Positions 5,397-64,000 of a DNA stretch of 64,000 bases are shown piece after piece. The notes under the pieces were generated by a model. It had not been told where the DNA came from, searched no databases, and worked only from the letters and a program-made list of their open reading frames with translations. Source of the stretch: a bacterium. GTDB taxonomy: Bacteria > UBP6 > UBA1177. Location: contig JAFYIZ010000012.1 of assembly GCA_017538365.1 (NCBI GenBank), forward strand, positions 60,920-124,919. The letters run 5' to 3'. The translations under genes were made by a program, and so were the position numbers. Numbering within the stretch: the first letter of the stretch is position 1; every line of letters starts with the position of its first letter.

Positions 5397-6515
5397 ATGC
5401 CCGTAAAAGATTTGCATGCACACCCTTTTGATGAGGGAACTATCACCAAACTCGAAATATTTGAAAATTATGCCAAAGAATGGCTGCCTACTTTTATTAT
5501 GAGTTATCCAAACAAAGATTTATGGATGTTCGACTTTTTTGCTGGAACAGGCAAAGATCAGAATGGAGTTGCCGGCACTCCCATTCGCTTGTTACAACAA
5601 GTTAAAAGCCAGGCTGGCAACATTTTCAATCAAAAATGTAAAATCAATATTTGTTTGAACGAACTCGATGAAAACAAGTTTAATTCTATGCAAATATGCT
5701 GTGACGAGTTTGTACATAGTAATAATGAATTGCTAAGACTCTATGATAAATATTTATTTCTTCACTATCGTAATGGTGATTTTGCCGAACTTTTTCCTAA
5801 GACATTAGATACTATAAAAGAAAACCCTTCCCTGCTGTTTCTTGACCAAAACGGAATGAAATTTCTGGCTGATAAATATATTATGAATTTAGAAAGCTTG
5901 CCACATACAGATTTCTTGTATTTTTTATCTTCCTCATATGTTTTGAGATTTGGGAATACTCCTGAGTTTCAGACAAATTTAAGGTTGGACATGGAAAAAA
6001 TAAAGGAGAATCCATACAAGTATGTTCACAAAAACATTCTTGAGCAACTAAAAAACAAATTACCCAATGATTCTGATCTAAAATTATATCCTTTCACAAT
6101 CAAAAAAGGAGCAAATATTTATGGTATAATTTTTGGAGCAAAACATCCATTGGCAGTTGACAAATTTCTCAAAACTGCTTGGAATAAAAACAACATCAAT
6201 GGAGAAGCCAACTTTGATATTGATGAAGACAATAAAAAATGTCAATTGACTATATTTGGAGAAAAACCTTTGACAAAAATAGAAGGTTTCCAACAGCGGT
6301 TGCGAGAATTGATACTGAACGGAGATATAAAAACCAATCGTGAAGCTTATGATTACACAATTTCTCAAGGACACATTGACAAACATGCGGCTGAAGAAAT
6401 TTCAAAAATGAAAAAAGAAGGACTTATAGATTTTGAAGGAAGAACTCCTTTGGTAAACTATGAACAAACATATAAAAACAAGCGAATAATAACATTCCAG
6501 GTAATAAAAAAATGA
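5397..6515 (+). CDS. Hypothetical protein, putative three-Cys-motif partner protein (TcmP-like). N-terminus carries a DFFAGTG Rossmann-like motif.
   Basis: 372 aa. AT-rich codon usage. ATGA overlap with the downstream DUF5131 gene. The pairing with a Gp37/Gp68 protein is the basis of the TcmP guess. Confidence 0.45.
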   Translation: MPVKDLHAHPFDEGTITKLEIFENYAKEWLPTFIMSYPNKDLWMFDFFAGTGKDQNGVAGTPIRLLQQVKSQAGNIFNQKCKINICLNELDENKFNSMQICCDEFVHSNNELLRLYDKYLFLHYRNGDFAELFPKTLDTIKENPSLLFLDQNGMKFLADKYIMNLESLPHTDFLYFLSSSYVLRFGNTPEFQTNLRLDMEKIKENPYKYVHKNILEQLKNKLPNDSDLKLYPFTIKKGANIYGIIFGAKHPLAVDKFLKTAWNKNNINGEANFDIDEDNKKCQLTIFGEKPLTKIEGFQQRLRELILNGDIKTNREAYDYTISQGHIDKHAAEEISKMKKEGLIDFEGRTPLVNYEQTYKNKRIITFQVIKK

Positions 6516-7237
6516 AAACGACAAAAATAGAATGGACTGATAAAACATGGAATCCTGTTACAGGATGCACCAAGATTTCGCAGGGATGCGTTCATTGCTA
6601 CGCCGAAACGATGACCCGCCGACTTAATGCAATGGGATTGGAGAAATACGCAAACGGATTCAATGTCACTCTGCATGAAGATTGTCTATCCGAACCATTG
6701 GCATGGAAACAACCTCACACCATTTTTGTTTGTTCAATGAGTGACTTGTTTCACAAGGATGTTCCTTTTGAATTTATAAACAAGGTTATGGAAACCATAC
6801 GTATGACACCTCAGCACCGTTATCAGCTATTGACCAAACGGGCGGAACGCATGGCTGAATACTTTCTATCACATGATATTCCGCAGAACGCATGGTTGGG
6901 AGTTACAGTTGAAGTTCAATCCTCTAAATCCAGAATAGAATCTCTGCGCTCACTTGACGCACCTATCCGCTTTCTCTCTTGCGAGCCTTTGATCGAAGAT
7001 TTGGGAACTTTGAATTTGGAGAACATTGACTGGGTTATTGTAGGAGGGGAAAGCGGACCGCAAGCAAGACCTATGAAAGAAGAGTGGGTAAAATCAATAA
7101 AAGAACAAGCCGAACGTCAGGGATCAGCCTTTTTCTTCAAACAATGGGGCACCTGGGGCAGCGACGGTATCAAAAGAAACAAACACAAAAACGGAAAACT
7201 GATTGACGGAAAAATTTTTCAGGCAATGCCGGCTTAA
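6512..7237 (+). CDS. Phage protein Gp37/Gp68 family (DUF5131) three-Cys-motif protein
   Basis: N-terminus MKTTKIEWTDKTWNPVTGCTKISQGCVHCYAE matches the family hallmark (IEWTD..WNP..GC..S.GC..CYA). 241 aa. Confidence 0.7.
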   Translation: MKTTKIEWTDKTWNPVTGCTKISQGCVHCYAETMTRRLNAMGLEKYANGFNVTLHEDCLSEPLAWKQPHTIFVCSMSDLFHKDVPFEFINKVMETIRMTPQHRYQLLTKRAERMAEYFLSHDIPQNAWLGVTVEVQSSKSRIESLRSLDAPIRFLSCEPLIEDLGTLNLENIDWVIVGGESGPQARPMKEEWVKSIKEQAERQGSAFFFKQWGTWGSDGIKRNKHKNGKLIDGKIFQAMPA

Positions 7238-7451
7238 ACTTCATTTCGAATAAATCTTACTGGAATTGACAGATGTTTACACCTCAAAAGCCTTAAAATT
7301 TCTCGCAAGACTTCTTAGCGGTTTCCGCCTCGTTGCTTGGGATTTTCACAAGTAAAACATGACTTTTTAAGTTGTTTTTTAAGAAAAACTAAAGATAATC
7401 TCACGGCGTTTTGTAACGATAGGGTTAAACCAAAAATTTGAGGGGCAAAAC

Positions 7452-9530
7452 ATGGATTTAAAAGACATTTTAAAGGATAGCAACTACAGTCTTGATCAAT
7501 TTGATAAAGAAAAAATCCTGAAATTAGAGCAAAAAATCAAAGAAAAAGAAGTCAAAGGCATAATAACTCCCTATGTCAACTGTATCGTTAGGAATAAAGA
7601 GATAAAACTTACTCCTGAAGAAATTGTCCGCCAACTTTATCTCATGGTTTTAATTGAAAATTTTCATTATCCTGTTTCAAGGATGGATGTTGAATATGTG
7701 GTTACTTTCGGCAGAGATAAAAAGCGTGCCGATATTGTCATTTTCGATAAGGATCAAACCTACACTCCATATATTGTTGTTGAGCTGAAAAGTCCTAAAT
7801 TGAAAGACGGCAAAGAACAGCTTAAAAGCTATTGCAACGCCACAGGCGCACCGATCGGTGTTTGGACAAACGGCAACAGTATTTCTTACTATCACCGCAA
7901 AGACCCGAATTTCTTTGAGGATATTCCGATCATTCCAACAGCCGAAGAAAAGCTTTCGGACATATTGAGCGAGCGTTGGCTTATCGATGATTTGGTGAAG
8001 AAAGACAAACTGGTCAATGAGCGAAAATCGCTGAAAGACTTAATTTTGGAAATGGAAGACGAAGTCCTTGCCAATGCCGGTGTCGATGTCTTTGAAGAGG
8101 TTTTCAAGCTGATTTTCACAAAATTATATGATGAAATGGAAAGTGGTCGAAAGAAAGACCGCCATTTGCAGTTCCGTAATTATGGTGACACTGAAACCGA
8201 ACTGAAAGAGAAGCTTCAAAACCTTTTCAACGAAGCCAAGGAAAAGTGGTCTGGTGTTTTCTCTGACGATGCAAAACTGATGCTCACGCCTTCGCATTTG
8301 TCGGTTTGCGTTAGTTCCCTGCAGGATGTGAAACTTTTCAACTCGAATTTGGATGTGGTCGATGAAGCTTTTGAATACTTGATAAACAAAAGCAGCAAGG
8401 GTGAAAAAGGTCAATATTTTACACCTCGCTATGTTATCGATATGTGTGTGCGGATGCTGAATCCTTCGGAAAAGGAAACAATGATTGATACTGCTGCGGG
8501 CAGTTGCGGTTTTCCTGTACACACAATTTTCTATGTTTGGCAAAAGATTTTAGAAAGCAAGGGACTTAAAAAGAGCCATCTTTTCACTTTGGAACAAAAG
8601 CCGGCAGAATGCACTGATTATGTGCAGAATAAAGTGTTTGCCATTGATTTTGACGAAAAAGCTGTGCGTGTTGCAAGAACCTTAAACCTGATCGCAGGTG
8701 ATGGACAAACTAATGTAATGCATCTCAACACTTTAGATTATGAGCGTTGGGACGAAAATCTGAAAGACGAGAATTGGCAGGAAACTTATATCGATGGTTG
8801 GAATAAATTAAAGAAAATGCGTGCCAACAAAAACAGCAATCGTGATTTTCAATTTGATGTTTTAATGGCGAATCCTCCATTTGCTGGAGATATAAAAGAA
8901 AGCCGCATTTTATCAAAATATGAACTTAGCAAAAATGCAGCAGGTAAAATGGCTAGCAAGGTTGGGCGCGACATTCTTTTCATTGAACGCAATCTTGACT
9001 TCCTGAAACCAGGCGGACGCATGGCTATTGTTTTGCCGCAAGGCCGTTTTAACAACAGCAGTGATAAATACATCCGAGATTATATTGCCGAGCGTTGCCG
9101 CATTTTGGCAGTTGTTGGTTTGCACGGAAATGTGTTCAAACCGCACACTGGAACAAAAACAAGCGTATTGTTTGTGCAGAAATGGGATGAATTGCTTTGC
9201 CCCAAGAAAGATGATTATCCGATTTTCTTTGCCACCATGCAGGAGCCGAGTAAGGATAACAGCGGAGAAAAGATTTTCGTCAAAAAAGGCGATTATCCGC
9301 CAGCACAAAAACCGATTTATGATGTTTATAGCAAAAACCAAGACACCGGTCCTTGCGATCCTCTTCCACGTTATGAGGCCTCGCCCAAAGAAAACAACGA
9401 ATATTTGTTGGATTCACATGGCCATTTGATAGTAAAACACGACCTTTTCAATCACGATGGTTTGACCAAAGACGGAATCGCTGAAGCCTTTGCCGAATTT
9501 GCCAAAAAGGAGGGGCTAAGTTTTTTTTGA
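7452..9530 (+). CDS. Restriction-modification enzyme, BcgI-like A subunit: N-terminal PD-(D/E)xK nuclease domain fused to an N6-adenine DNA methyltransferase
   Basis: N-terminus RADIVIFD…YIVVELKSPK (D…ExK). Methyltransferase motif IV LMANPPFAGDI and a motif I-like DTAAGSCGF. 692 aa. Confidence 0.75.
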   Translation: MDLKDILKDSNYSLDQFDKEKILKLEQKIKEKEVKGIITPYVNCIVRNKEIKLTPEEIVRQLYLMVLIENFHYPVSRMDVEYVVTFGRDKKRADIVIFDKDQTYTPYIVVELKSPKLKDGKEQLKSYCNATGAPIGVWTNGNSISYYHRKDPNFFEDIPIIPTAEEKLSDILSERWLIDDLVKKDKLVNERKSLKDLILEMEDEVLANAGVDVFEEVFKLIFTKLYDEMESGRKKDRHLQFRNYGDTETELKEKLQNLFNEAKEKWSGVFSDDAKLMLTPSHLSVCVSSLQDVKLFNSNLDVVDEAFEYLINKSSKGEKGQYFTPRYVIDMCVRMLNPSEKETMIDTAAGSCGFPVHTIFYVWQKILESKGLKKSHLFTLEQKPAECTDYVQNKVFAIDFDEKAVRVARTLNLIAGDGQTNVMHLNTLDYERWDENLKDENWQETYIDGWNKLKKMRANKNSNRDFQFDVLMANPPFAGDIKESRILSKYELSKNAAGKMASKVGRDILFIERNLDFLKPGGRMAIVLPQGRFNNSSDKYIRDYIAERCRILAVVGLHGNVFKPHTGTKTSVLFVQKWDELLCPKKDDYPIFFATMQEPSKDNSGEKIFVKKGDYPPAQKPIYDVYSKNQDTGPCDPLPRYEASPKENNEYLLDSHGHLIVKHDLFNHDGLTKDGIAEAFAEFAKKEGLSFF

Positions 9531-10951
9531 ATAGCCCTTTCGACGAACTGAAATATAAAGAGCTGTTGAAAGGGCTGGAGGCGAGTGAGATCTTATTTTC
9601 ATATGTAAAAACTCAAACTGACATTTTGCGGTTAGATAGTTTCTATTATTCAAAAGAGTTTTTATCAGATGAAATCATTATCTCAAAAACAACCAATAAA
9701 ACCTTAAAAGAGCTAAATGCAAGTCTTTTAAGTTTTGGTGCATATTCATTGAACAATTTTGTTGAGTATAAGGATTCTGGGATTCCATTTGTTCGTGGAT
9801 TAAATATGAAGAATGGTGTGTTAGATTTTTCTGACACAATTTATATTGATGCGAACGCGCACAAATTGCTTTGGAAATCAGAGGTGAAACCAAACACGAT
9901 TTTGCTTTCTATGTCTGGAACTATTGGCGAAGTTGCTATTGCTGTGCAAGAGTATCAATATCCAATGAATTCGAATCAAGACATCGCAAAAATCAGATTA
10001 AAAAGAGAAAGCATACGACCGTGTTATTTATATGCATTTTTACGTTCCAAATATGGGCAAAACTTTTTAAAAAGAGAAGCGCGTGGTAGTGTGCAACAAC
10101 ATGTGTTTTTATCACAAATAGAAACCATCAGAATTCCTTTACTGCCTGATTCATTTCAATTACAAATAGAACAACTCGTCAAGTCTGCACATTCTAATTT
10201 ATATCAATCAAAAGCTCTTTATTCTGATGCGGAGAATATGCTCTTATCTGAAATTGGCTTGCAAGATTGGCAGCCAAACAATAATCCAGTCAATATTAAG
10301 CAACTAAAAGAATCATTTTGGGCAAGTGGAAGGTTGGATGCTGAGTATTATCAGACAAAATATGATGAAATAGAATCAGTTATTACAAAATACAAATATG
10401 GTTACGACAGAATAGAGAATCTGTTTTCTCAGAACACAGAAGTTTGTGATTACAAAGAGGAAGCTTACAATTACATCGAAATAGGCGATATCAACATAGG
10501 TGACGGCTCAGCTAATTATAATTTAGTATCTACAGAAAATCTGCCTGACAATGCGAAGCGTGTTCTTCACAAGAATGATATATTAGTTTCGAAGGTAAGA
10601 CCTTATCGTGGAGCTGTTTCAATTATTGATTTTGATGATGAAAAATTGATTGGGAGTGGAGCATTTACCGTCTTGCACGAAAAAACATCTTACAAAAAAG
10701 AAGTCTTGCAAATACTTTTACGCACCCAAATATATAAGGATTGGCTGTTAAAATGGAATGTCGGCAGTTCCTATCCTGTTATAAAAGATGAAGATATTAT
10801 GAATTTGCCAATTCCATTATTTCCAAATACAGTTCAAACCAAAATTGCAGAATATGTCCAAAAGAGCATATTTTTGAGAAATGAGGCTAAACACCTTTTG
10901 GAAGAAGCCAAAATGATGGTAGAAAAAGAGATTGAGGAAGGAACTTTTTAA
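9527..10951 (+). CDS. Restriction-modification specificity subunit (HsdS/BcgIB-like, two target-recognition domains)
   Basis: 474 aa with two TRD-like halves separated and terminated by coiled-coil conserved regions. 4-nt overlap with the methyltransferase gene. Confidence 0.7.
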   Translation: MNSPFDELKYKELLKGLEASEILFSYVKTQTDILRLDSFYYSKEFLSDEIIISKTTNKTLKELNASLLSFGAYSLNNFVEYKDSGIPFVRGLNMKNGVLDFSDTIYIDANAHKLLWKSEVKPNTILLSMSGTIGEVAIAVQEYQYPMNSNQDIAKIRLKRESIRPCYLYAFLRSKYGQNFLKREARGSVQQHVFLSQIETIRIPLLPDSFQLQIEQLVKSAHSNLYQSKALYSDAENMLLSEIGLQDWQPNNNPVNIKQLKESFWASGRLDAEYYQTKYDEIESVITKYKYGYDRIENLFSQNTEVCDYKEEAYNYIEIGDINIGDGSANYNLVSTENLPDNAKRVLHKNDILVSKVRPYRGAVSIIDFDDEKLIGSGAFTVLHEKTSYKKEVLQILLRTQIYKDWLLKWNVGSSYPVIKDEDIMNLPIPLFPNTVQTKIAEYVQKSIFLRNEAKHLLEEAKMMVEKEIEEGTF

Positions 10952-10975
10952 TATTTTTGATTTGGGATAAATACC

Positions 10976-11803
10976 ATGGGCAAAACAGTAACAACGTATC
11001 TGATTGACGGAGATCCTAAAGGAACTCAGTATGTGTTCATCAGCAACAAAATTTGCCAGATGTATGTAATTCCGCGTTCAAACCTTTCGATTCTGAATGA
11101 GCGACCGGAATTGCAGACACCGGCATTTTATATTTTGCTGGGAGAAGACGAATCCACAAAACCAAAGGCGTATATCGGTGAGACAGAAAACTTTCGTGAA
11201 CGTGTAAAAGACCACGAAAGCAAGAAGGAATTTTGGCAAAAAGCACTGATTTTCATCGCAAAAGATGCCGCTATGACAAAAGCAGATGTGCAATACTTGG
11301 AACATAAAGCTATTGCAGAGGCAAAAGCATCCAATACTTTTGTGCTGAACGAAAACAAGCAGACGCCGAAAGCACCGAATCTTCCTGAGTACAGAAAAGA
11401 TGACATGGATGGATTCTTTGAAGATGTGAAATTCCTGACATCTTTTATCGGCTGCAATATTTTCGATGTGGTCAGAACGAAAGAAAAACACCTGTTCTAC
11501 ACAAAAGGACGCGGTTGCGATGCTAAAGGCTTTTATGATGCTGACGGCTTTACTGTTCTGAAAGGAAGTATTGTCGCAAAATCATCAACACCGTCGTTTG
11601 CATGGAAAGAAAAACGCGAGCAATTGCTTAAAGAATATACTTCCATGAATGGAGAAAAATTGGTATTGGAATCCGACAAAACCTTTTCCAGTCCAAGTAC
11701 CGCATCCACGTTTGTTTTAGGACGACAATCCAATGGCTGGAGTGATTGGAAAGACAAAGACGGACAAACATTAGACGCTGTCTACAGAAAACAGTTGGAA
11801 TAA
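10976..11803 (+). CDS. GIY-YIG nuclease family / DUF4357 domain protein
   Basis: Motif AYIGETENFRERVKDHESKK (GIY-YIG-like, with Arg and His). C-terminal FTVLKGS…NGWSDW matches DUF4357. Typical location downstream of hsdS. Confidence 0.6.
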   Translation: MGKTVTTYLIDGDPKGTQYVFISNKICQMYVIPRSNLSILNERPELQTPAFYILLGEDESTKPKAYIGETENFRERVKDHESKKEFWQKALIFIAKDAAMTKADVQYLEHKAIAEAKASNTFVLNENKQTPKAPNLPEYRKDDMDGFFEDVKFLTSFIGCNIFDVVRTKEKHLFYTKGRGCDAKGFYDADGFTVLKGSIVAKSSTPSFAWKEKREQLLKEYTSMNGEKLVLESDKTFSSPSTASTFVLGRQSNGWSDWKDKDGQTLDAVYRKQLE

Positions 11804-56246: not shown

Positions 56247-58013
56247 ATGGATAATCGCTGGAATCTTGATGCTCTTTATACAGGTTTTGATTCGCCGGAA
56301 TTTATAGGCGACTGCAAAAAACTCGATTCAAAAAATGAAGAATACGAACATTTTGCGAACACACTTTCCAAAAGCGGCGACATCTCCCAAATTCTGAAAA
56401 AATACGTTGAGTTGAAATCTGAAATCTCCGCGCTGACCGAAAAACTTCTCTGCTTTGCAAACCTCTCTTTCTGTGCCAATACAAACAATACGAAAGCAAA
56501 CTCCTACATCGAATTGATTTCTGTCAGAGAGAACAGGACTACACTCACCGATGTCAGATTCATAAAATGGCTTGCCTCCAGCGGGTTCGATCCGGAAACT
56601 TTGAAGGGAACAGACCTTGAAGAGTGCATTTTTCACTTTGAAGAGCTCATCACAAAAGGGCGTCACATTCTCGATGACCAGACAGAGCAGATCATTTCCA
56701 ACCTCAAGCTGGTCGGTTCTTCGGCATGGATGAATCTCCACAATGTCCTTACCGGCTCTCTCACAGGCAAAATTTCAATTGTAGAGGGAAGAAGCGAGGT
56801 AAAACCGATTTCGCAGATTCGCGCGATGGCGTATTCCGAAAGTGCAGACACCAGAAAAAAGGCTTACGAAGCGGAAATCAGGGCTTACAAAAAAGTCGAA
56901 AAGGCAGTGGCTGCCTGCATCAACTCGATCAAGGGAGAATCAATCATTCTGGCGAGAATGCGCGGCTACGCTTCGCCGCTCGAGATGGTTCTCACCAAAA
57001 ACAGAATGGAAAAAAGCATCATTGACACGATGTTCGCCGCGATAAGAGAGTATCTTCCGTGCTTCAGGGCTTACTATAAAAAGAAAGCAAAAATGCTCGG
57101 GCTCAGCGGTTCACTTCCGTTTTACGACATTTTCGCCCCCGTAACAGCCAAGGCGCAGTCAAACTTCACTTATGAAGAAGCTGCGAAATTCATTGTTGAA
57201 AAATTTTCGACTTTCAGCAGAAAACTCGGCGATTTCGCAAAAAACGCCTTCGATAAAAACTGGATCGATTCAGAAATCAGACCGGGAAAAGTGGGCGGTG
57301 CCTTCTGCGAAAACCTTTTTTCGATTTCGCAGAGCAGGATCCTCGCCAATTTCGGCGGCTCGTACAACGATGTCACGACTATCGCTCACGAACTCGGCCA
57401 CGCATTCCACGGTCACTGCCTTTCAAACAACGTGATTTTGAATACCGGCTACCCTTCTCCGCTTGCCGAAACCGCTTCTATTTTCTGTGAAACGATAATC
57501 AACAAGGCGGCACTGAAAGAGGCTGACAAAGAAACTAAACTGGCCATTCTCGAATCCGAGATCTCCTCTGCAGGACAGGTCATAGTCGATATTTACAGCA
57601 GATATCTTTTCGAAACGGCGCTTTTCAAAGCACGCGAAATCGCACCGCTTTCACCTGAACAGCTCTGTGAAGAAATGACAAAAGCACAGATCGAATCTTA
57701 CGGCGACGGGCTTGATGAAAATGTTCTCCACCCCTATCTCTGGCTCATCAAACCGCACTACTACAACCCGGAGTGGAACTTCTACAACTTCCCGTATGCG
57801 TTTGGTCTCCTCTTTGCAAAAGGACTTTACGCAAAGTACACCGAAACGGGAAGCAGTTTCGCCGAAAAGTATGAATATCTACTTTCGGAAACGGGCAAAC
57901 GCAGCGTAACCGATGTTGCCAAAATAGTTGACGTCGATCTCAACGACATAAACTTCTGGAAAAACTCTCTCGAACTCATCAAAGAAGATATCTCGAAATT
58001 CCTCGATTTATGA
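56247..58013 (+). CDS. pepF: Oligoendopeptidase F (M3B metallopeptidase)
   Basis: Zinc motif HELGHAFHG (HExxH). Size 588 aa, typical of M3B. GAGGTG RBS. Confidence 0.8.
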   Translation: MDNRWNLDALYTGFDSPEFIGDCKKLDSKNEEYEHFANTLSKSGDISQILKKYVELKSEISALTEKLLCFANLSFCANTNNTKANSYIELISVRENRTTLTDVRFIKWLASSGFDPETLKGTDLEECIFHFEELITKGRHILDDQTEQIISNLKLVGSSAWMNLHNVLTGSLTGKISIVEGRSEVKPISQIRAMAYSESADTRKKAYEAEIRAYKKVEKAVAACINSIKGESIILARMRGYASPLEMVLTKNRMEKSIIDTMFAAIREYLPCFRAYYKKKAKMLGLSGSLPFYDIFAPVTAKAQSNFTYEEAAKFIVEKFSTFSRKLGDFAKNAFDKNWIDSEIRPGKVGGAFCENLFSISQSRILANFGGSYNDVTTIAHELGHAFHGHCLSNNVILNTGYPSPLAETASIFCETIINKAALKEADKETKLAILESEISSAGQVIVDIYSRYLFETALFKAREIAPLSPEQLCEEMTKAQIESYGDGLDENVLHPYLWLIKPHYYNPEWNFYNFPYAFGLLFAKGLYAKYTETGSSFAEKYEYLLSETGKRSVTDVAKIVDVDLNDINFWKNSLELIKEDISKFLDL

Positions 58014-59794
58014 ACACAAAACTTAAAAGAATAATTGCGGCAGTCATTTTCCTGCTCTTTTCGGCGGCACTCGTTATTTTTGCGCTTGAAAAAGTTTCAA
58101 AAGGAAAAATTGACGGATTTTCATCTAAGGCGACTGCTCTGATAAAGGCCAAATACGGCGTTGATACAGAAATTTCGGGGCTTGATGTCTCCTTTTTTCC
58201 GCCGCGGATATTTGTCAAAAAAGCTGTTTTTTCGCTCAACGGAAGTGAACTCGCCGCATTGGAAAAATGTTCTTTGGGAAATCTTCAGAAAATGCTTTTT
58301 TCAGACGAAAAAAAGCTGAAGATGAACTGCGCGAACTCAAGGATTCATGCGGACAAAGCCCTGAAAGCGCCGCTTCTGCCGGACGAAGAAAAAGACAAGG
58401 AAAAAGAGAAAAATGAAAACCGCAGAAACATCGATTTTTCGATAGATTTTTCAACTGACGCAGACTTTATTTTCGGCAGCGTAACGCAGAGTTTTTCCAC
58501 CGAGCTTACCGTTTCTCGCTCAGGCGGAAAGGCGCTTTTCAAAGAACTCGGCAAAGATGGCGGCGGAACAGGAGAAATTCTGTTTTCGCTCAAAGAAAAA
58601 AGTGCTTCAGTGCGCCTCGACGGTATCGATTTGAACGATTTTCACGAAATAATAAAAAGCAAAACATCGTTCGACGTTTCAGCGGGAAAAATCAGCTCTT
58701 TTTCTGAAATTTCGGAAGAAAAAGGGATTTTTCTTATCAAAAGCGACATGACTATCCACGACCTGACCTTTTTTCATCCACTCATCGATTCCCAGCCGTT
58801 CACTCTGCCGCTTTTCAGGTTCACTGGCGTTGTAACTTTCGACAAAAACGAAAAATCTGCGGAAACGAAAGACGCAGAGCTCTCACTCGGCGGCATAAAC
58901 GCAACACTTTCTGCATCTTACAGCAAGACATCCAAAGAGTTTTCGATAAAAACCGAATCGGCGAAACTCAACAAACTCGAAACCCTGATACATGACGAAG
59001 CGTTTGAAGGCTACCTTTTCGGCGGAACACTCGAACTTTTGGCAGAATACTCGCAGGAAGGCGACGAACCTCCGGTTTTTTCAGTCGTCGGCAACCTTGT
59101 CGAGCCTAAACAGCTTTCGGAGCGCATGGACTACCTCAAACTGCCTTTTGAATACATCTGGACAAACGAAGACGGAACCGAGAGAAAGATCTTCGTCGGC
59201 GAGCGCAACCACGATTTCACGCCGATATCTCTTATTCCCGACCATCTCATCTGGGCAGTCGTCGTTTCGGAAGACGCCGGATTTTTTGTCCACAAAGGAG
59301 TCGATTTTCAGGAGCTTGACGCGGCAGTAAAAGACAACATCAAAAAACACAAACTGCGCGGCGGCTCAACGATACCGCAGCAGCTTGCGAAAAACCTCTT
59401 CCTCAACCGCGACAAAACCCTTCTTCGCAAATTCCGCGAAGTGTTGCTCGCGATAGAACTTGACGCCGCCCTTTCAAAAGAGCGCCTTCTTGAGATATAT
59501 TTCAACATAATCGAGTGGGCGCCCGGCATTTTCGGAATCTCGCAGGCAGCTTACTACTACTTCGGAAAGCAGCCTTTCGAACTCACCCCGCTCGAATCAG
59601 CATACCTCGCTTCCGTAATCCCCGGACCAGCAAAATACCACTTCATGTTCCTCACCAAAAACGTGACCGAAAACTGGTACAAAAGCCTTTACAGAATCCT
59701 CAACATCATGAATGAGACAGGTCACCTCTCGACCGACGACTACTTCGAAGCGCTGGAACAGTCGATAGTTTTCAGGGAAAACGAGGAAGAATAA
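58010..59794 (+). CDS. Membrane-anchored protein with a C-terminal GT51 peptidoglycan glycosyltransferase (transglycosylase) domain and a long N-terminal domain of unknown function
   Basis: VVSEDAGFFVHKGVDFQELDAAVKDN…RGGSTIPQQLAKNLFL…EIYFNIIEWAPGIFGI matches the monofunctional transglycosylase domain. 4-nt overlap with pepF. Confidence 0.7.
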   Translation: MNTKLKRIIAAVIFLLFSAALVIFALEKVSKGKIDGFSSKATALIKAKYGVDTEISGLDVSFFPPRIFVKKAVFSLNGSELAALEKCSLGNLQKMLFSDEKKLKMNCANSRIHADKALKAPLLPDEEKDKEKEKNENRRNIDFSIDFSTDADFIFGSVTQSFSTELTVSRSGGKALFKELGKDGGGTGEILFSLKEKSASVRLDGIDLNDFHEIIKSKTSFDVSAGKISSFSEISEEKGIFLIKSDMTIHDLTFFHPLIDSQPFTLPLFRFTGVVTFDKNEKSAETKDAELSLGGINATLSASYSKTSKEFSIKTESAKLNKLETLIHDEAFEGYLFGGTLELLAEYSQEGDEPPVFSVVGNLVEPKQLSERMDYLKLPFEYIWTNEDGTERKIFVGERNHDFTPISLIPDHLIWAVVVSEDAGFFVHKGVDFQELDAAVKDNIKKHKLRGGSTIPQQLAKNLFLNRDKTLLRKFREVLLAIELDAALSKERLLEIYFNIIEWAPGIFGISQAAYYYFGKQPFELTPLESAYLASVIPGPAKYHFMFLTKNVTENWYKSLYRILNIMNETGHLSTDDYFEALEQSIVFRENEEE

Positions 59795-59824
59795 AAATCC
59801 CGTTGCAGGCTGTTTCCAAGAGTT
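59795..59824. repeat. Intergenic repeat A, copy 1 (aaatcccgttgcaggctgtttccaagagtt)
   Basis: Near-identical to 62102-62132. Confidence 0.6.
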
Positions 59825-59932
59825 CAATATTAGCTAAATCAAAGCGACAAATCGCTAACCACGGTTAGCGAAATTGACACGCTTCAATTAGTTAAATGCA
59901 GAGAAACGCAAAGTAAAAATTTTGACCTTGAA

Positions 59933-60661
59933 TTGTTCCTTTCGCTTGGTTTTACACATCATATGATAATTATTCGAAAAGCCAAAACGCTGTCTGAGCG
60001 GATTTTTTACATACGGCAGGCGCTGGAAAACAAATGGAATAAAGATATTCTTGCAGAACAAATAGATGCAGATCTTTTTAATCAAACAGGTGCTCTTCCC
60101 AACAATTTCGCGAAAACGATTCCGAAAGCTGTATCGGCTGTTAGGGCTCTCGAGATGTTTAAAGATGAATATCTCCTTGATTTTATAAATGTTGAGGAAA
60201 TCGGAGAACGCGACAAGGAAGATATTGACGAGCGAGAGGTCGAGAAGACGATAATTCACAATGTGAAGAATTTTATTATGACTTTCGGTCATGACTTTAC
60301 ATTCGTCGGGAATCAGTATCATCTAGAAAAATTCGGACATACAGCTTATCCCGATTTGCTTTTTTATAACAGAGAACTTGCAGCACTGGTTGCTGTTGAA
60401 TTGAAGCGCGGTGAATTTAAACCTGCATATTTAGGGCAGTTGAGTGCCTATTTGCGTATCCTTGACAATGAAGTGAAGAAGCCTTTTGAAAATCCGAGCA
60501 TCGGAATCGTGCTTTGCAAAAAAGCAGATAAGAATTTTGTCGAATTTCTTATTCAGGGATACGACAATCCGATGGGGGTAGCCACCTATAAAACAGCAGA
60601 AGATGTGCGGAAAGTGCTACCGTCAGAAAATGATCTGCTTAGAGTCATGGATGAAAAATAG
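59933..60661 (+). pseudogene. DUF1016/YhcG-family PDDEXK nuclease, apparently N-terminally truncated (C-terminal about 240 aa only)
   Basis: C-terminal PDDEXK region …LVAVELKRGEFKPAYLGQLSAYLRILD… present. The family's N-terminal about 100 aa is absent. Repeat element A1 lies immediately upstream. Confidence 0.45.
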
Positions 60662-60733
60662 AAAGATTTCACAACCGCGCTTTGGGATTTTTTAGAAAAG
60701 CTTTTTGTTGAAAATATATTGAAAAATCAAGAT

Positions 60734-60749
60734 GTTGTTTTCTGAAACC
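60734..60749. repeat. Intergenic repeat B, copy 1 (gttgttttctgaaacc), followed by gagcgcgggtgactcgcc
   Basis: Shared with 62164-62179 and 63688-63703. Confidence 0.55.
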
Positions 60750-60847
60750 CTCTGGGAGCGCGGGTGACTCGCCAGCTCGTCATTCTGAGCTTTAGCGTTG
60801 AATCTCTGTTTCCGGTTGCTGAGCTAAATATTTTCGATTTCCAAGAT

Positions 60848-60881
60848 GCAATTTTTGCACCTCGATCCAGGTGAAAGGTGT
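60848..60881. repeat. Intergenic repeat C, copy 1 (gcaatttttgcacctcgatccaggtgaaaggtgt)
   Basis: About 85% identical to 61995-62029. Confidence 0.6.
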
Positions 60882-60918
60882 GGACAGGTGCGATTCCGAA
60901 TGAAGTCGGGGCCTTTAA

Positions 60919-61740
60919 TCATTCCTTATTTTCAATCAAAAGTTTTCTGTTTTCTATATTTTCCAGAACTTCCATCTGCTGTATTGCAATTTGGTTCAGT
61001 CTTTCTAGGCGTTCCGGCTGCGGAAGTCCGTCATTTATGAATACTGCATTCAGGTTTTCCATGTTTGAAAGGCAGATAAGTTGGTTTATTGAGGCATAAT
61101 CTCGGATATTGCCTTTTAAATCAGGGTTCGAATCTCTCCATTCCTGAGCAGTCATGCCGAACATTGCCACATTAAGCAGATCAGCTTCGTCGGCATAAAC
61201 AAACGATTTTTGCCTGGCTGTAAGTTTCGGCGGAATAAGATTGTGGCTGACTGCGCTCGTATGAATGTGATAGTTTATCTTTGCCAACTCGCGTTTCGCA
61301 CTCCAACCTATTTGTTTCTGTTCATCTTCTTTCAAGCGTTGGAATTCTTTTATCAAATACAGCTCAAACTCCGGTGATACCCAACTGGCGAATTTAAAAG
61401 CTATATCTTTTTGAGCATAAGTGCCACCATTTACACCGTTTTTTGAGATAAGTCCTTTTGCATTTGTAATTTCAACCCAACGGCTTGGACTCATTGTAAA
61501 AGCGTTACTTCCGACTTCTTTTAAAAAGGGGTCGAATTCGACCCCTTTGAAATCCGGGTTGTTAAGCATTTCCCATAACCCCAGATATTCCAAAGTGTTT
61601 TTCGAACGCATCCAGTTCTTTATCACATCCTTAGGTTCAACAGGATTTTTCAGTCTGGCGATGTCCGTAATAGATAAATAATCATCGCCGTTAAATTTGA
61701 TAGTTTTAATGATGGTTTCTTTTACTGTAATTTTTGTCAT
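60919..61740 (-). CDS. KilA-N domain protein
   Basis: MTKITVKETIIKTIKFNGDDYLSITDIARLKN…NWMRSKNTLEYLGLWE matches the KilA-N / Bro-N-like DNA-binding domain. AGGAGG RBS before the ATG at 61740. Confidence 0.6.
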   Translation of the reverse strand: MTKITVKETIIKTIKFNGDDYLSITDIARLKNPVEPKDVIKNWMRSKNTLEYLGLWEMLNNPDFKGVEFDPFLKEVGSNAFTMSPSRWVEITNAKGLISKNGVNGGTYAQKDIAFKFASWVSPEFELYLIKEFQRLKEDEQKQIGWSAKRELAKINYHIHTSAVSHNLIPPKLTARQKSFVYADEADLLNVAMFGMTAQEWRDSNPDLKGNIRDYASINQLICLSNMENLNAVFINDGLPQPERLERLNQIAIQQMEVLENIENRKLLIENKE

Positions 61741-61994
61741 GCAGTCCTCCTCAAATAAAACAAAAATTTCAGAATATAACAATAACAAATTTAAGAAATA
61801 AAAGCAAGAATATTTGAACTACAATATTGAATAAAGTTTCAAATGCGTCTTAATTTTTAGAATAATAATAAAAATATTTTCTATTAATTGTAATCGGTCG
61901 CCAAATTCAGTTGAAGCAAACGCAGGCTTGCGAGCCTGACTCACGACAACATTTTCAATAATAAATTCAGCCAGTTTTCACTTGATTTTGAGGT

Positions 61995-62029
61995 GCAATT
62001 TTTTCAACCTCGATCCAGTTAAAAGGTGT
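61995..62029. repeat. Intergenic repeat C, copy 2 (gcaattttttcaacctcgatccagttaaaaggtgt), followed by gagcgcgggcggctcgcc
   Basis: The gagcgcggg.g.ctcgcc segment is also found after repeat B copy 1 (60756-60773). Confidence 0.6.
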
Positions 62030-62101
62030 AAAATGAGCGCGGGCGGCTCGCCTATCAGTCATCTTGAACGAATGTGAAAGATCTCAAAAATCATTCCCTC
62101 G

Positions 62102-62132
62102 AAATCCCGTTGCAGGTTGTTTCGGAAGAGTT
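62102..62132. repeat. Intergenic repeat A, copy 2 (aaatcccgttgcaggttgtttcggaagagtt)
   Basis: Near-identical to 59795-59824. Confidence 0.6.
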
Positions 62133-62163
62133 TTGTTTGAGGAAAATCTTGAGAAATCGAGCC

Positions 62164-62238
62164 CTTGTTTTCTGAAACCGTGAGCTGACAGGTGTTTCCA
62201 GACATATGTTTTTACTGCTGTTCTTAGCATGGTTTCAG
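62164..62238. repeat. Intergenic repeat B, copy 2, with an 8-bp terminal inverted repeat (ctgaaacc … ggtttcag) bounding about 68 bp
   Basis: cttgttttctgaaaccgtgagctgacaggtgtttcc…catggtttcag. Confidence 0.55.
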
Positions 62239-62274
62239 TTTTGTTTTTAAAATATTTATTTAATATAAAAAACA

Positions 62275-62299
62275 AAACTTGATTTTTTATCAAAATTAT
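62275..62299. promoter_or_regulatory. Palindromic motif aaaacTTGATtttttATCAAaatta upstream of the AAA/DUF4143 gene. Candidate operator/promoter element.
   Basis: Identical 25-mer at 63797-63821, upstream of the DUF1016 gene. Confidence 0.45.
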
Positions 62300-62482
62300 T
62301 GTTTTTATCTTGTGAAAATTTTTCTTTGTTGTTTGAAAATTATAAAAAAATGCGGTGGTGTAAGAAAAAATTGCAGCAGTATTACAAAAATTTCCAGATT
62401 TTGAAAAAATTCGCAATAGCATTGCAATTTTTTACCAAATGCGTTATTGTTTGAAATAAGTTCTTTCCCAAAGAGGTGAAAA

Positions 62483-63667
62483 ATGATAAAAAGAGAAAAA
62501 TATCTTAGTGAAATAAGAGGTTTTTATGACAGCGACCTCATAAAAATCATTACCGGAGTCCGCAGGTGCGGAAAGTCGGTCATACTCGAACAGATCATGG
62601 AAGAGGTGCGGCTGAAATCAGAAAACGTTGTTTATCTAGATTTTGACGACAGGGCTGTGACTTCTTCGATTGAAAGCTGGAAGGAGATCGTTGATTATGT
62701 GAACAGCCGCAGAAAAGAAGGTTTGTGCTATGTTTTTCTTGACGAAATTCAGGAAATAAACGACTGGGCTTTAGCCTGCAGATCGCTGAGACGGGAAAAC
62801 TGTTCCGTTTTTATCACCGGTTCAAATTCCAAACTTCTTTCAAAAGAGTTCACAAAAGAGCTTTCTGGCAGATATGTTGCATTCAGAATCCGTCCTTTTG
62901 TCTACAAAGAGCTGCTTGAATACGCGAAAGAACTCAAAAAAGATGTTTCGATCTCCGATTATCTTGTCTGGGGCGGCTTCCCGAAACGGCTCGAACTGAA
63001 CGGAACCGGCGAAATCAGAAGATATATCTCTGAACTTGACGAGACGATAGTGTCTAACGACATAATCAACCGCTACGGAATAAGAAAAAATGCGGAATTT
63101 AAGAAATTAGCGAACTTTATTTTGCGGTCAAATGCGCGGATTTATTCGGCAAAATCCATTTCTGACTATATGAAAAGCAACGGCATTCCGTGCACTCCGA
63201 ACACCATCGGAAAATGGATAGGCTATCTCTCCGAAGCGTATATAATCGACGAAATCCCCCGATATTCGAAAAAAGCGAAGAAAGAACTCGAACAAAGCAA
63301 GAAAATCTACAACAGCGATGTCGCTCTCAACTCAATACGATGCCTTGACAACCGCTTTGACATGACTCACAATCTGGAAAATGCCATCTACAACGAACTG
63401 GTTTTTATGGGGTATAATTTGTCAGTTTACGACAACAACGGCAGAGAAATCGATTTCATTGCTGAAAAAGATAACCAGAGATTTTACATTCAGGTAGCCT
63501 TCAGCATCGCGGAAGAAAAAGCTTACGAAAGAGAATTGACGGCTTTCAATTCACTGACTCAGCGCGACAGGAAAATAATCATTACGAATGACGACATCGA
63601 CTACTCCACAAGCAACATCGACCATATCAAACTTAAAGATTTCCTTATGATGGAAAGTTTGGGGTGA
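62483..63667 (+). CDS. AAA-superfamily ATPase with a DUF4143 C-terminal domain
   Basis: Walker A ITGVRRCGKSVILEQ. Walker B-like VFLDEIQEI. Family commonly found in mobile/accessory regions. Confidence 0.65.
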   Translation: MIKREKYLSEIRGFYDSDLIKIITGVRRCGKSVILEQIMEEVRLKSENVVYLDFDDRAVTSSIESWKEIVDYVNSRRKEGLCYVFLDEIQEINDWALACRSLRRENCSVFITGSNSKLLSKEFTKELSGRYVAFRIRPFVYKELLEYAKELKKDVSISDYLVWGGFPKRLELNGTGEIRRYISELDETIVSNDIINRYGIRKNAEFKKLANFILRSNARIYSAKSISDYMKSNGIPCTPNTIGKWIGYLSEAYIIDEIPRYSKKAKKELEQSKKIYNSDVALNSIRCLDNRFDMTHNLENAIYNELVFMGYNLSVYDNNGREIDFIAEKDNQRFYIQVAFSIAEEKAYERELTAFNSLTQRDRKIIITNDDIDYSTSNIDHIKLKDFLMMESLG

Positions 63668-63687
63668 TTTAATGTGAACCGCAAGAT

Positions 63688-63703
63688 CTTGTTTTGTGAA
63701 ACC
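63688..63703. repeat. Intergenic repeat B, copy 3 (cttgttttgtgaaacc)
   Basis: Shared with 60734 and 62164. Confidence 0.5.
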
Positions 63704-63796
63704 GTGCGCTAATCGGCGTTTCGGGCACAGTATTTTTTGTCTGTTTTAGATATTTTTTTAGATGTATTTTTGATAAATTTCTTAAAATGTAAAAAT

Positions 63797-63821
63797 AAAA
63801 CTTGATTTTTTATCAAAATTA
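63797..63821. promoter_or_regulatory. Second copy of the palindromic TTGATtttttATCAA motif upstream of the partial DUF1016 gene
   Basis: Identical to 62275-62299. Confidence 0.45.
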
Positions 63822-63867
63822 AGATGCGATAATTCGATAAAATTTCTTTTAAATTGGAGAAAAGAAG

Positions 63868-64000
63868 ATGGAAACAACGATGATCGCGATTGCAAATGCT
63901 GTGAAAACAATAAAATCAGCGATTTTGAAGAGCCAGAGTCAAGTCGCTTTGGACGGCAACAGAATCCAGCTTTCACTGTATTTCGGAATAGGAAAATATA
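63868..64000 (+). CDS. N-terminus of a second DUF1016/YhcG-family nuclease gene (runs off the window end)
   Basis: METTMIAIANAVKTIKSAILKSQSQVALDGNRIQLSLYFGIGKY resembles the YhcG N-terminal region. GGAGAAAAG RBS. Confidence 0.4.
   Translation, partial: METTMIAIANAVKTIKSAILKSQSQVALDGNRIQLSLYFGIGKY

Follow-up and report, generated by a model that had tools for sequence, protein, structure and literature searches.

What are the short repeats that recur, in changing order, between mutually unrelated genes at the right-hand end of this stretch of DNA? The stretch (hereafter the window) comprises 64,000 nucleotides (nt) of a metagenome contig (JAFYIZ010000012.1 of assembly GCA_017538365.1, positions 60,920 to 124,919) from a bacterium of the lineage UBP6; UBA1177, with sample names that point to the ruminant gut. 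An earlier note on the sequence had described three motifs, A, B and C, and a shared G block, and had read them as decayed remnants of the miniature inverted-repeat transposable element (MITE) kind or as cassette boundaries. Comparison with related contigs points to the latter. We consider it likely that the repeats are the joints of stacked, single-gene, phage-defence-type cassettes, which occupy a variable slot and are exchanged by recombination within a conserved linker. A core of 15–16 bases inside motif B probably marks the place of cassette exchange.

The motifs themselves are real and lie in the orders described before. Searches of the window allowing up to three mismatches, controlled by dinucleotide-preserving shuffles, recovered two copies of A (59795–59816 and 62102–62123; 21 of 22 positions identical), three of B (starting at 60734, 62164 and 63688) and two of C (60852–60881 and 62000–62029; 87% identity), numbers that 0 of 100 shuffles reached for any of the three. 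The G block (60756–60773 and 62035–62052) is the weakest motif when taken alone, as two matches were reached in 3 of 100 shuffles; its similarity stretches to 33 nt at 73% identity. The order is B-G-C at 60.7–60.9 kb and C-G-A-B at 62.0–62.2 kb. Several features go beyond the earlier description. A2 and B2 form one continuous unit of about 80 nt (62102–62179), to which B1 aligns over 65 nt. B2 and B3 are both continued by an AT-rich stretch, D, which gives a B+D repeat of 135 nt (62164–62298 and 63688–63821; 72% identity, E = 1e-19), both copies of which end in an identical 25-mer. A fourth B copy, B4, lies past the window end at positions equivalent to 64993–65018 (12511–12536 of L001, which continues the window by 9.6 kb; L001 coordinate = window coordinate - 52482); it is 96% identical to B3 and coincides with the stop codon of a full-length DUF1016 gene. 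Elsewhere in the 64-kb window, the same search found no copy of any of the motifs.

The DNA that carries the motifs is accessory. Between two convergent core genes, encoding a transglycosylase and a DapH-like acetyltransferase, lie about 9.5 kb (window 59795 to about 69276), with a GC content of 0.37–0.40 across the repeat region against about 0.46 in other parts of the window, in agreement with the AT-richness noted earlier. This slot is empty in six related genomes (L007–L010, L048 and L049; transglycosylase identity 77–86%). There the two core genes abut or overlap, with overlapping stop codons in L009, L010, L048 and L049 and only a small palindromic insert in L007 and L008. Because the genes run together in these six relatives, the 9.5 kb must have an accessory character. 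Three further gene sets occupy the same slot in other relatives: AbiD/Abi_2, an acidic protein of 591 amino acids (aa) and two helix-turn-helix (HTH) genes in L038 (96% identity); the ATPase gene alone in L042 (transglycosylase identity about 84–85%); and Abi_2, KilA-N, ATPase, ORF6N and a second KilA-N gene in L056. In the window, Pfam bears out the genes named before, a truncated DUF1016 gene, a KilA-N gene and a DUF4143 ATPase gene. All of this cargo, the full-length DUF1016 gene included, matches single-gene phage-defence candidates in PADLOC (PDC-S02 for both DUF1016 genes, PDC-S22 for KilA-N and PDC-S01 for the ATPase), and the view of the region as a hotspot of small defence-associated genes stands.

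Comparing the window with the L056 allele locates the joints. Across the transglycosylase gene and A they share 95.8% identity, after which they are unrelated, with the truncated DUF1016 gene in the window versus an Abi_2 cassette in L056. Homology resumes at B1. From about 15 nt before its core to just past the core of B3 the alleles are 96.6% identical, a stretch that spans G1, C1, KilA-N, C2, G2, A2, B2, D2 and the ATPase gene. Past the core of B3, the H-D segments (a GC-richer H followed by D) are only 60–75% alike, and the genes behind them are unrelated (DUF1016 versus ORF6N). On the 3' side of ORF6N, L056 has a worn core and then again G, its tail, C and KilA-N. The B core is the point where alleles of the slot switch from about 96% identity to no or weak homology, and it is this switch, together with the empty and differently filled slots, that sustains the cassette-boundary reading.

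The same breakpoint recurs in comparisons with other genomes and loci. The ATPase unit is 94% identical at the nucleotide level to L046 (window 62317–63703) and 93% identical to L042 (62344–63700); L042 is the same slot of a more distant genome and L046 an unrelated locus between unrelated genes. In both, the last core base, the end of ...CTTGTTTTGTGAAACC, is where homology breaks off, exactly or to within 3 nt, and what follows is not H-D but a G block, as on the 3' side of B1 in the window. The stretch running from the 3' part of the ATPase gene through B, H and D to the DUF1016 gene is 95% identical in L050, whereas the neighbouring genes for an Lcl_C protein and a 649-aa protein are only 71–73% identical. 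In L050 this stretch adjoins an Abi_2 cassette 97% identical to that of L056, and a NUDIX gene lies on the left of the locus. Cassettes are thus 93–97% identical between genomes with backbones that are 71–85% identical, and this higher conservation of the cassettes makes their horizontal exchange clear.

The joints share a core of sequence (C/T)TTGTTTT(C/G)TGAAACC, which together with a left arm makes up a conserved element of about 32 nt. This element, ending in CTTGTTTTSTGAAACC, is present at every well-resolved cassette junction. Searching ~611 kb of related DNA with a profile of it (nhmmer) gave ten matches at E ≤ 8e-6, every one of them at a cassette junction, with the next-best match at E = 0.06; an exact 15-mer scan of the core agrees in confining the copies to junctions. 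The core is identical or nearly so in eight of the ten copies, amid flanks that are 60–70% alike, and all cores have the same orientation. Its partners differ from copy to copy. The left flanks of the copies compared are of six kinds (the ATPase 3' end, an AT-rich segment 'x', the DUF1016 stop, the ORF6N 3' end, the G block and a diverged Bx copy in L050) and the right flanks of three (G-type, H-type and Abi_2-type), which combine into at least seven different pairings around one core. On its 3' side the core is succeeded by G or by H-D, which is the 5' region specific to each forward cassette; G-type sequence stands in this place also in L042, in L046 and twice in L056. H-D3 is kept with the DUF1016 gene in L050 at 95%; the place ahead of ORF6N in L056 is taken by a diverged H''-D''.

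More distant homologues of the cargo genes lack the core, as in L045 (86% aa identity), L053 (91% aa identity) and L059 (within a type I restriction-modification operon), and the core therefore belongs to the arrays of this lineage and not to the gene families. A core-plus-H pattern retrieved nothing from 185,579 species genomes beyond two chance Streptomyces matches, core patterns were absent from viral contigs, and a megablast of window 59795–64000 against plasmid and phage records gave no match. The earlier note had named confinement of the motifs to this locus, without structural conservation, as what would speak against its reading. This is indeed the picture in the visible part of this genome, but it does not extend to other loci and genomes, where copies of the core are always attached to the same cassettes (L046, L050).

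With these comparisons the anatomy of the array can be laid out (Table 1). On sequence grounds, motif B, left arm included, is the junction core element. G, together with its tail, and C are parts of the two ends of the KilA-N cassette. Motif A is an array leader beside the transglycosylase gene, with a second copy at the end of the KilA-N cassette. A forward cassette begins just after a core, proceeds via the GC-richer H, the AT-rich, promoter-like D and one gene, and closes with a 3' flank whose end is the next core. Read in this way, the array of the window is leader A1 / truncated DUF1016 - B1 / G-C-KilA-N(reversed)-C-G-A-x - B2 / H'-D2-ATPase - B3 / H-D3-DUF1016 - B4 / Lcl_C terminator hairpin. 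At the position of A1, L056 has a complete A-x-core0 unit, which matches window 62102–62180 at 76.5%. The open reading frame (ORF) of the truncated DUF1016 gene spans 59933–60661, the tblastn match begins at 59864, and about 110 N-terminal residues and the promoter region are missing. The loss of this promoter and of about 110 codons, along with the x-core part of leader A1, is an ordinary deletion. At the other end, the stop codon of the full-length DUF1016 gene overlaps the core copy TGAAACC of B4, which forms the 5' arm of a hairpin that also belongs to the convergent Lcl_C lipoprotein gene. Past Lcl_C follow the gene for the 649-aa membrane protein, an HTH_19 gene and then the DapH-like acetyltransferase gene.

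Table 1. Coordinates of the array and its left border in the window.
Feature	Position	Strand	Description
Transglycosylase gene	58010..59794	+	Pfam Transgly, 9e-47; core gene, left border of the variable slot
A1	59795..59824	+	Accessory block and array leader (A-x-core) begin here; x-core part lost
5'-truncated DUF1016/YhcG PD-(D/E)XK nuclease cassette	59864..60661	+	Pfam YhcG_C, 1.4e-44; PADLOC PDC-S02, 7.8e-85
B1	60718..60749	+	32-nt element with core TTGTTTTCTGAAACC at 60735-60749; nhmmer E = 8e-6
G1 block + tail	60750..60830	+	GC-rich mini-hairpin 60756-60773; tail holds CGTCATTCTGAGC; start of KilA-N cassette
C1	60844..60881	+	Repeat downstream of KilA-N gene; 39-nt alignment, 87% identical to C2
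KilA-N gene	60919..61740	-	Reversed within its own cassette; Pfam KilA-N, 8e-20; PADLOC PDC-S22, 1.6e-127
C2 + G2	61991..62067	+	C2 61991-62029, G2 62035-62067; upstream of KilA-N gene
A2-x-B2	62102..62179	+	3' end of KilA-N cassette, second leader copy; core 62165-62179; nhmmer E = 5.8e-7
H'-D2	62180..62298	+	GC-richer segment, then AT-rich promoter-like stretch ending in AAAACTTGATTTTTTATCAAAATTA; 5' part of ATPase cassette; 72% identical to 63704-63821
ATPase cassette proper	62299..63703	+	Inverted repeat 62365-62433; AAA_14+DUF4143 gene 62483-63667 (Pfam; PADLOC PDC-S01, 8.8e-119); 3' flank ending in B3
B3	63672..63703	+	Core 63689-63703; end of the ATPase cassette 3' flank
H-D3	63704..63821	+	5' part of full-length DUF1016 cassette
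Full-length DUF1016 gene	63868..64000, on to 64995 beyond the window	+	375 aa; PADLOC PDC-S02, 3.5e-116

The copies of the core share sequence and not structure. The inverted repeat reported at B2 exists and is longer than the 8 bp first claimed, forming an 11-bp stem (CTGAAACCGTG / CATGGTTTCAG, 62172–62238) that is followed by a T-run; the hairpin has a fold z-score of -1.5. B4 (L001 12495–12560) reaches z = -3.1 on both strands. It alone folds clearly better than shuffles, and B2 does so weakly. No terminal inverted repeats exist at B1, B3 or B4 or at the copies in L038, L042, L046 and L050, and folding of all B copies revealed no secondary structure common to them. On account of these differing folds, an attC site or another conserved hairpin was rejected. 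The attC boxes R'' (RYYYAAC) and R' (GTTRRRY) are not matched either: the B2 arms CTGAAAC/GTTTCAG share only AAC/GTT with them, B4 has GATTCAG and B3 lacks a 3' arm. No Rfam covariance model reached its gathering score in the window, and in 59700–64000 none matched even at E ≤ 1.

A recombinase was sought on all the relevant contigs. None, whether integrase, transposase or of another kind, was found among the 29 window ORFs scanned (three giant ORFs left out) or in the 10 kb past the window end; the earlier note had suggested a search for an integrase or transposase outside the window. The annotations of L001, L038, L042, L046, L050 and L056 contain no Phage_integrase or other recombinase family, and the cassette region holds no mobility genes. 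The 649-aa neighbour was considered as a hidden recombinase and rejected: its sequence shows a signal peptide, an internally duplicated stretch and membrane helices at the C-terminus, and it matches nothing in Pfam or PADLOC. No tRNA or tmRNA genes were found, so there is no tRNA insertion target, and the integrase of an integrase-type genomic island is likewise missing. C-G-A as a decayed duplicate of the transglycosylase 3' end, in the manner of an att-type duplication, was also discarded, as the alignments are no better than shuffles; the sequence upstream of C2-G2-A2 does not significantly match that 3' end (z = -0.2 to 1.1).

We propose that cassettes would be gained, lost and swapped via recombination inside the short conserved linker, between slot alleles, loci and genomes. 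Homology and microhomology on incoming DNA would drive the process, possibly by double crossovers in linkers or core genes, or by Campbell-type single crossovers that would leave diverged direct repeats behind. Between exchanges, the linker would probably work as an insulator as well, its 3' flank resembling a terminator and its 5' part a promoter. That homology, and not a dedicated enzyme, carries out the exchange is our best guess, and we do not hold to it strongly. It is supported by three observations. Inserted blocks in L042, L056 and the window have diverged direct repeats of A-x-core on either side; in L050 the joint between Abi_2 and ATPase falls within a 9-nt microhomology, GGTGAAAAA, away from the core; and L042 retains core-G-A without KilA-N, as expected from a deletion between G1 and G2. 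A 'degenerate core' after A_R in L042 belongs to a long terminator-type hairpin and was not counted.

Several points weigh against this proposal. The analysis revealed neither an enzyme nor a pathway. RecA-type recombination over 16–32 nt of identity is inefficient, and breakpoints clustered tightly at one core are the outcome expected of a site-specific system. The duplications of C and G inside the KilA-N cassette (G-C ... C-G) fit no simple single event, and the ATPase unit has blurred left edges that vary from locus to locus. Scans for promoter and terminator consensus sequences did not rise above shuffled background, which leaves the promoter and terminator roles without statistical support. 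Moreover, the inspected part of the source contig amounts to ~74 kb out of 274 kb, and all comparisons rest on a handful of metagenomic contigs from uncultured organisms. Chimeric assembly at the junctions is unlikely, since the contigs of the window, L042, L046 and L056 are named k141_, presumably for assemblies with k = 141, far above the length of the 32-nt repeat.

The tight clustering of breakpoints leads directly to an integron-like alternative, in which a site-specific recombinase encoded elsewhere would recognise the ~16–32-nt core, possibly together with H, and excise and insert cassettes, B acting as attC and A-x-core0 as attI. The near-invariant core amid much less similar flanks speaks for such a system, as do mutually unrelated left and right partners joined at one point in several independent contexts, the uniform orientation of the cores, and single-gene cassettes that move between unrelated loci (L046, L050). 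Integron cassette arrays without a nearby integrase are known as clusters of attC sites lacking integron integrases (CALINs), for which an adjacent integrase is no requirement. We nonetheless regard this alternative as rather unlikely. No recombinase came to light among the ORFs scanned in the window, in the 10 kb beyond it or on the other array contigs, the core departs from the attC consensus without a hairpin common to its copies, and some joints lie off the core (the microhomology joint of L050, the A1/DUF1016 truncation). The A-x-core duplications that flank blocks are unlike the products of core-to-core recombination, and the cassettes bring their own promoter-like regions. A more specific form, to which we give a little less credence again, holds that the 16–32-nt core is the recombination site of an undescribed cassette-capture system, an integron analogue with a trans-acting recombinase that would store promoter-bearing single-gene anti-phage candidates (PDC-S01, PDC-S02, PDC-S22, AbiD, ORF6N). 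More speculatively, the cassette-encoded PD-(D/E)XK nucleases could act in a homing-like manner.

Two other explanations would deny the repeats any part in moving genes or would make them movers in their own right. In the former, their function is confined to intergenic signalling, as terminators, promoters or operators for the HTH_19 regulator, and they multiplied when genes were duplicated locally. The hairpins of B4 and B2 at gene 3' ends and the T-run after B2 would suit terminators, D contains TTGAT-type -35-like boxes and, in its perfectly conserved 25-mer, the palindrome TTGAT-N5-ATCAA, and three alleles retain the HTH_19 gene at the end of the block. Yet local gene duplication cannot explain the repeats, because the adjoining genes (ATPase, DUF1016, ORF6N, Abi_2, KilA-N) are mutually unrelated and the two DUF1016 copies are only 50% identical in amino acid sequence, which also disposes of a recent DUF1016 duplication as their origin. 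Exchange breakpoints fall at the core in comparisons of both alleles and loci, structure differs between copies, and the promoter and terminator scans stayed at background, so we hold this explanation to be improbable. D as a promoter specific to DUF1016 was rejected as well, since a region of D type lies ahead of the ATPase unit too and, diverged, ahead of ORF6N and Abi_2. The other half of the earlier note's reading, self-spreading MITE-like or repetitive extragenic palindromic (REP)-like elements that lie between these genes by chance, is already largely refuted and seems to us very improbable indeed. It could appeal to the 11-bp terminal inverted repeat of B2 and to a 13–14-mer, CGTCATTCTGAGC, shared between the G tail and the palindromic insert of L007 and L008 (z about 5, 0 of 300 shuffles). 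Against it, terminal inverted repeats occur at B2 only, no target-site duplications were seen at the repeats, and no dispersed copies exist: none off the cassette junctions in the window or in 611 kb of relatives, and none in species-representative genomes, viral contigs, plasmids or phages.

The array of linker-joined cassettes that we favour resembles several known systems. Like integron arrays and CALINs, it consists of tandem, mostly single-gene cassettes separated by one repeated site per junction, fairly homogeneous within the lineage and differing in content between strains, with cassettes shuffled between arrays and genomes and cargo rich in phage-defence functions. Sedentary chromosomal integrons are stores of anti-phage cassettes (10.1101/2024.07.02.601686), and natural transformation drives the shuffling of their cassettes (PMC12614218). 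Unlike integrons, it shows no attC-type imperfect hairpin, no R''/R' consensus and no IntI in view. Its site is a linear core of 16–32 nt, in contrast to attC, a folded site of 57–141 nt; its cassettes have promoter-like 5' regions, some of its joints lie off the core, and its host is an unclassified ruminant-gut bacterium.

A parallel is also found in Neisseria. Minimal mobile elements, in the passage of PMC3082526 that defines them with reference to Snyder et al. 2007, have conserved flanking genes with differing whole-gene cassettes between strains and no mobility genes, and that passage ascribes their exchange to homologous recombination after DNA uptake. The slot described here, with two conserved genes, six empty loci and three further gene sets (L038, L042, L056), has the same make-up; in flanking genes, variable cassettes and absence of mobility genes the array fits this definition, and it departs from integrons in the attC and IntI that define them. 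As far as that passage describes them, however, minimal mobile elements have their homology in the flanking core genes and usually one cassette per site, whereas here cassettes are stacked, each joint has an internal linker and the same cassettes occur at unrelated loci.

Other arrangements are similar in part. Defence islands between core genes carry cargo like that found here (PDC-S01, PDC-S02, PDC-S22); defence hotspots are usually described by their flanking genes only, whereas here individual cassettes have recognisable shared boundaries. The pdif modules of Acinetobacter plasmids are small gene modules without a recombinase of their own, bounded by short conserved sites and found in varying combinations, much as in this array. 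The pdif sites are 28-bp XerC/XerD sites in alternating orientation; the core, by contrast, lacks an 11-6-11 dyad and is always in direct orientation. The bacterial interspersed mosaic elements (BIMEs) of E. coli and the Neisseria intergenic mosaic elements (NIMEs) also combine short motifs in varied orders in intergenic DNA, but have hundreds of genome-wide copies, while the motifs here occur at cassette joints only.

The genes in question give the mechanism its wider interest. The AAA_14/DUF4143 ATPase (PDC-S01) and DUF1016 (PDC-S02) are extremely common single-gene defence candidates, PDC-S01 being the most frequent single defence-candidate locus in 6,530 rumen genomes (PMC13356809). Homologues at 70–76% aa identity occur in metagenome-assembled genomes labelled Treponema, Lachnospiraceae and Clostridia, a wide spread for such single-gene candidates. 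The sharp shared boundaries described here allow one cassette to be traced across alleles, loci and genomes and so offer a testable handle on mobility. If an enzyme does act at the core, the locus would represent a kind of cassette system beyond the integron paradigm. An undescribed capture system, like its homing-like variant, would also provide PDC-S01, the defence-candidate gene most common in rumen genomes, with a means of moving. If there is no enzyme, the locus would be a clear example of short conserved linkers that let homologous recombination build and reshuffle defence islets.

Some details of the array deserve mention in their own right. The 25-mer AAAACTTGATTTTTTATCAAAATTA is identical at window 62274–62298, window 63797–63821 and L050 3879–3903, although the surrounding D is only ~72% alike, which suggests a protein-binding site or gene conversion. 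An imperfect inverted repeat (62365–62396 / 62402–62433) upstream of the PDC-S01 ATPase gene accompanies this gene in L042, L046, L050 and L056, with part of it also present in L045 (86% identical), and probably serves the gene as its operator or promoter. In L050 (3250–3747), the PDC-S01 ATPase gene has suffered an internal deletion of about 685 nt (equivalent to window 62444–63128), and a 165-aa DUF4143 fragment is left behind an intact upstream region. The palindromic element of the otherwise empty slots, CGTCATTCTGAGC...GCGAAGAATCT, stands directly after the transglycosylase stop in L007 (11792–11890) and L008 (11783–11840), and its 13–14-mer recurs in the G1 tail of the window (60778–60790) and in L056.

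The surroundings of the array also show regularities. At the far end of the accessory block, beside the DapH-like gene, stands the 110-aa HTH_19 gene in L001 (16099–16431), L038 (15454–15786) and L043 (6038–6370), with 95% nucleotide identity between L001 and L038. Its product matches the PADLOC models capH, HTH_VI and restriction-modification control protein, and may be a regulator of the accessory block. In four of five array-bearing loci, the array lies beside genes for Lcl_C-type or acidic surface-type proteins (L001 12523–15987, L038 13304–15079, L042 7613–10028, L050 8958–12077), and L046 has only a weak Lcl_C-like match. In the window and L038, the last core plus H is located at or near the 3' end of such a gene. 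Two relatives carry yet other sequences after the transglycosylase gene, without A and without the DapH-like gene: a 359-aa gene and an MS channel gene in L040 (2573–3723; transglycosylase identity 96%), and the start of an unidentified ORF in L006 (6108–6280; 92%). The neighbourhood has thus been rearranged in some strains.

DUF1016 genes are found in a further setting, inside type I restriction-modification operons. L059 (3255–6113; also L060–L064) has the order hsdM - DUF1016 x3 - hsdS - Fic - hsdR, and its three tandem DUF1016 genes are tightly packed without a B core. The window itself contains a second AT-rich, defence-type islet (5397–11803; GC 0.34–0.39), in which the B core turned up neither by the 15-mer scan nor by the profile. 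Its products are a GMT-wHTH protein, DUF5131, an enzyme that fuses HSDR_N_2, N6_Mtase and Eco57I, a specificity subunit (Methylase_S) and a protein with GIY-YIG and DUF4357. The - strand of window 14180–41322 holds giant ORFs (5,088 and 2,109 aa) among which several pilin-like genes with the N-terminal methylation motif are interspersed. One of these matches ComP_DUS, the family of the DNA-uptake minor pilin, and could be relevant to DNA uptake.

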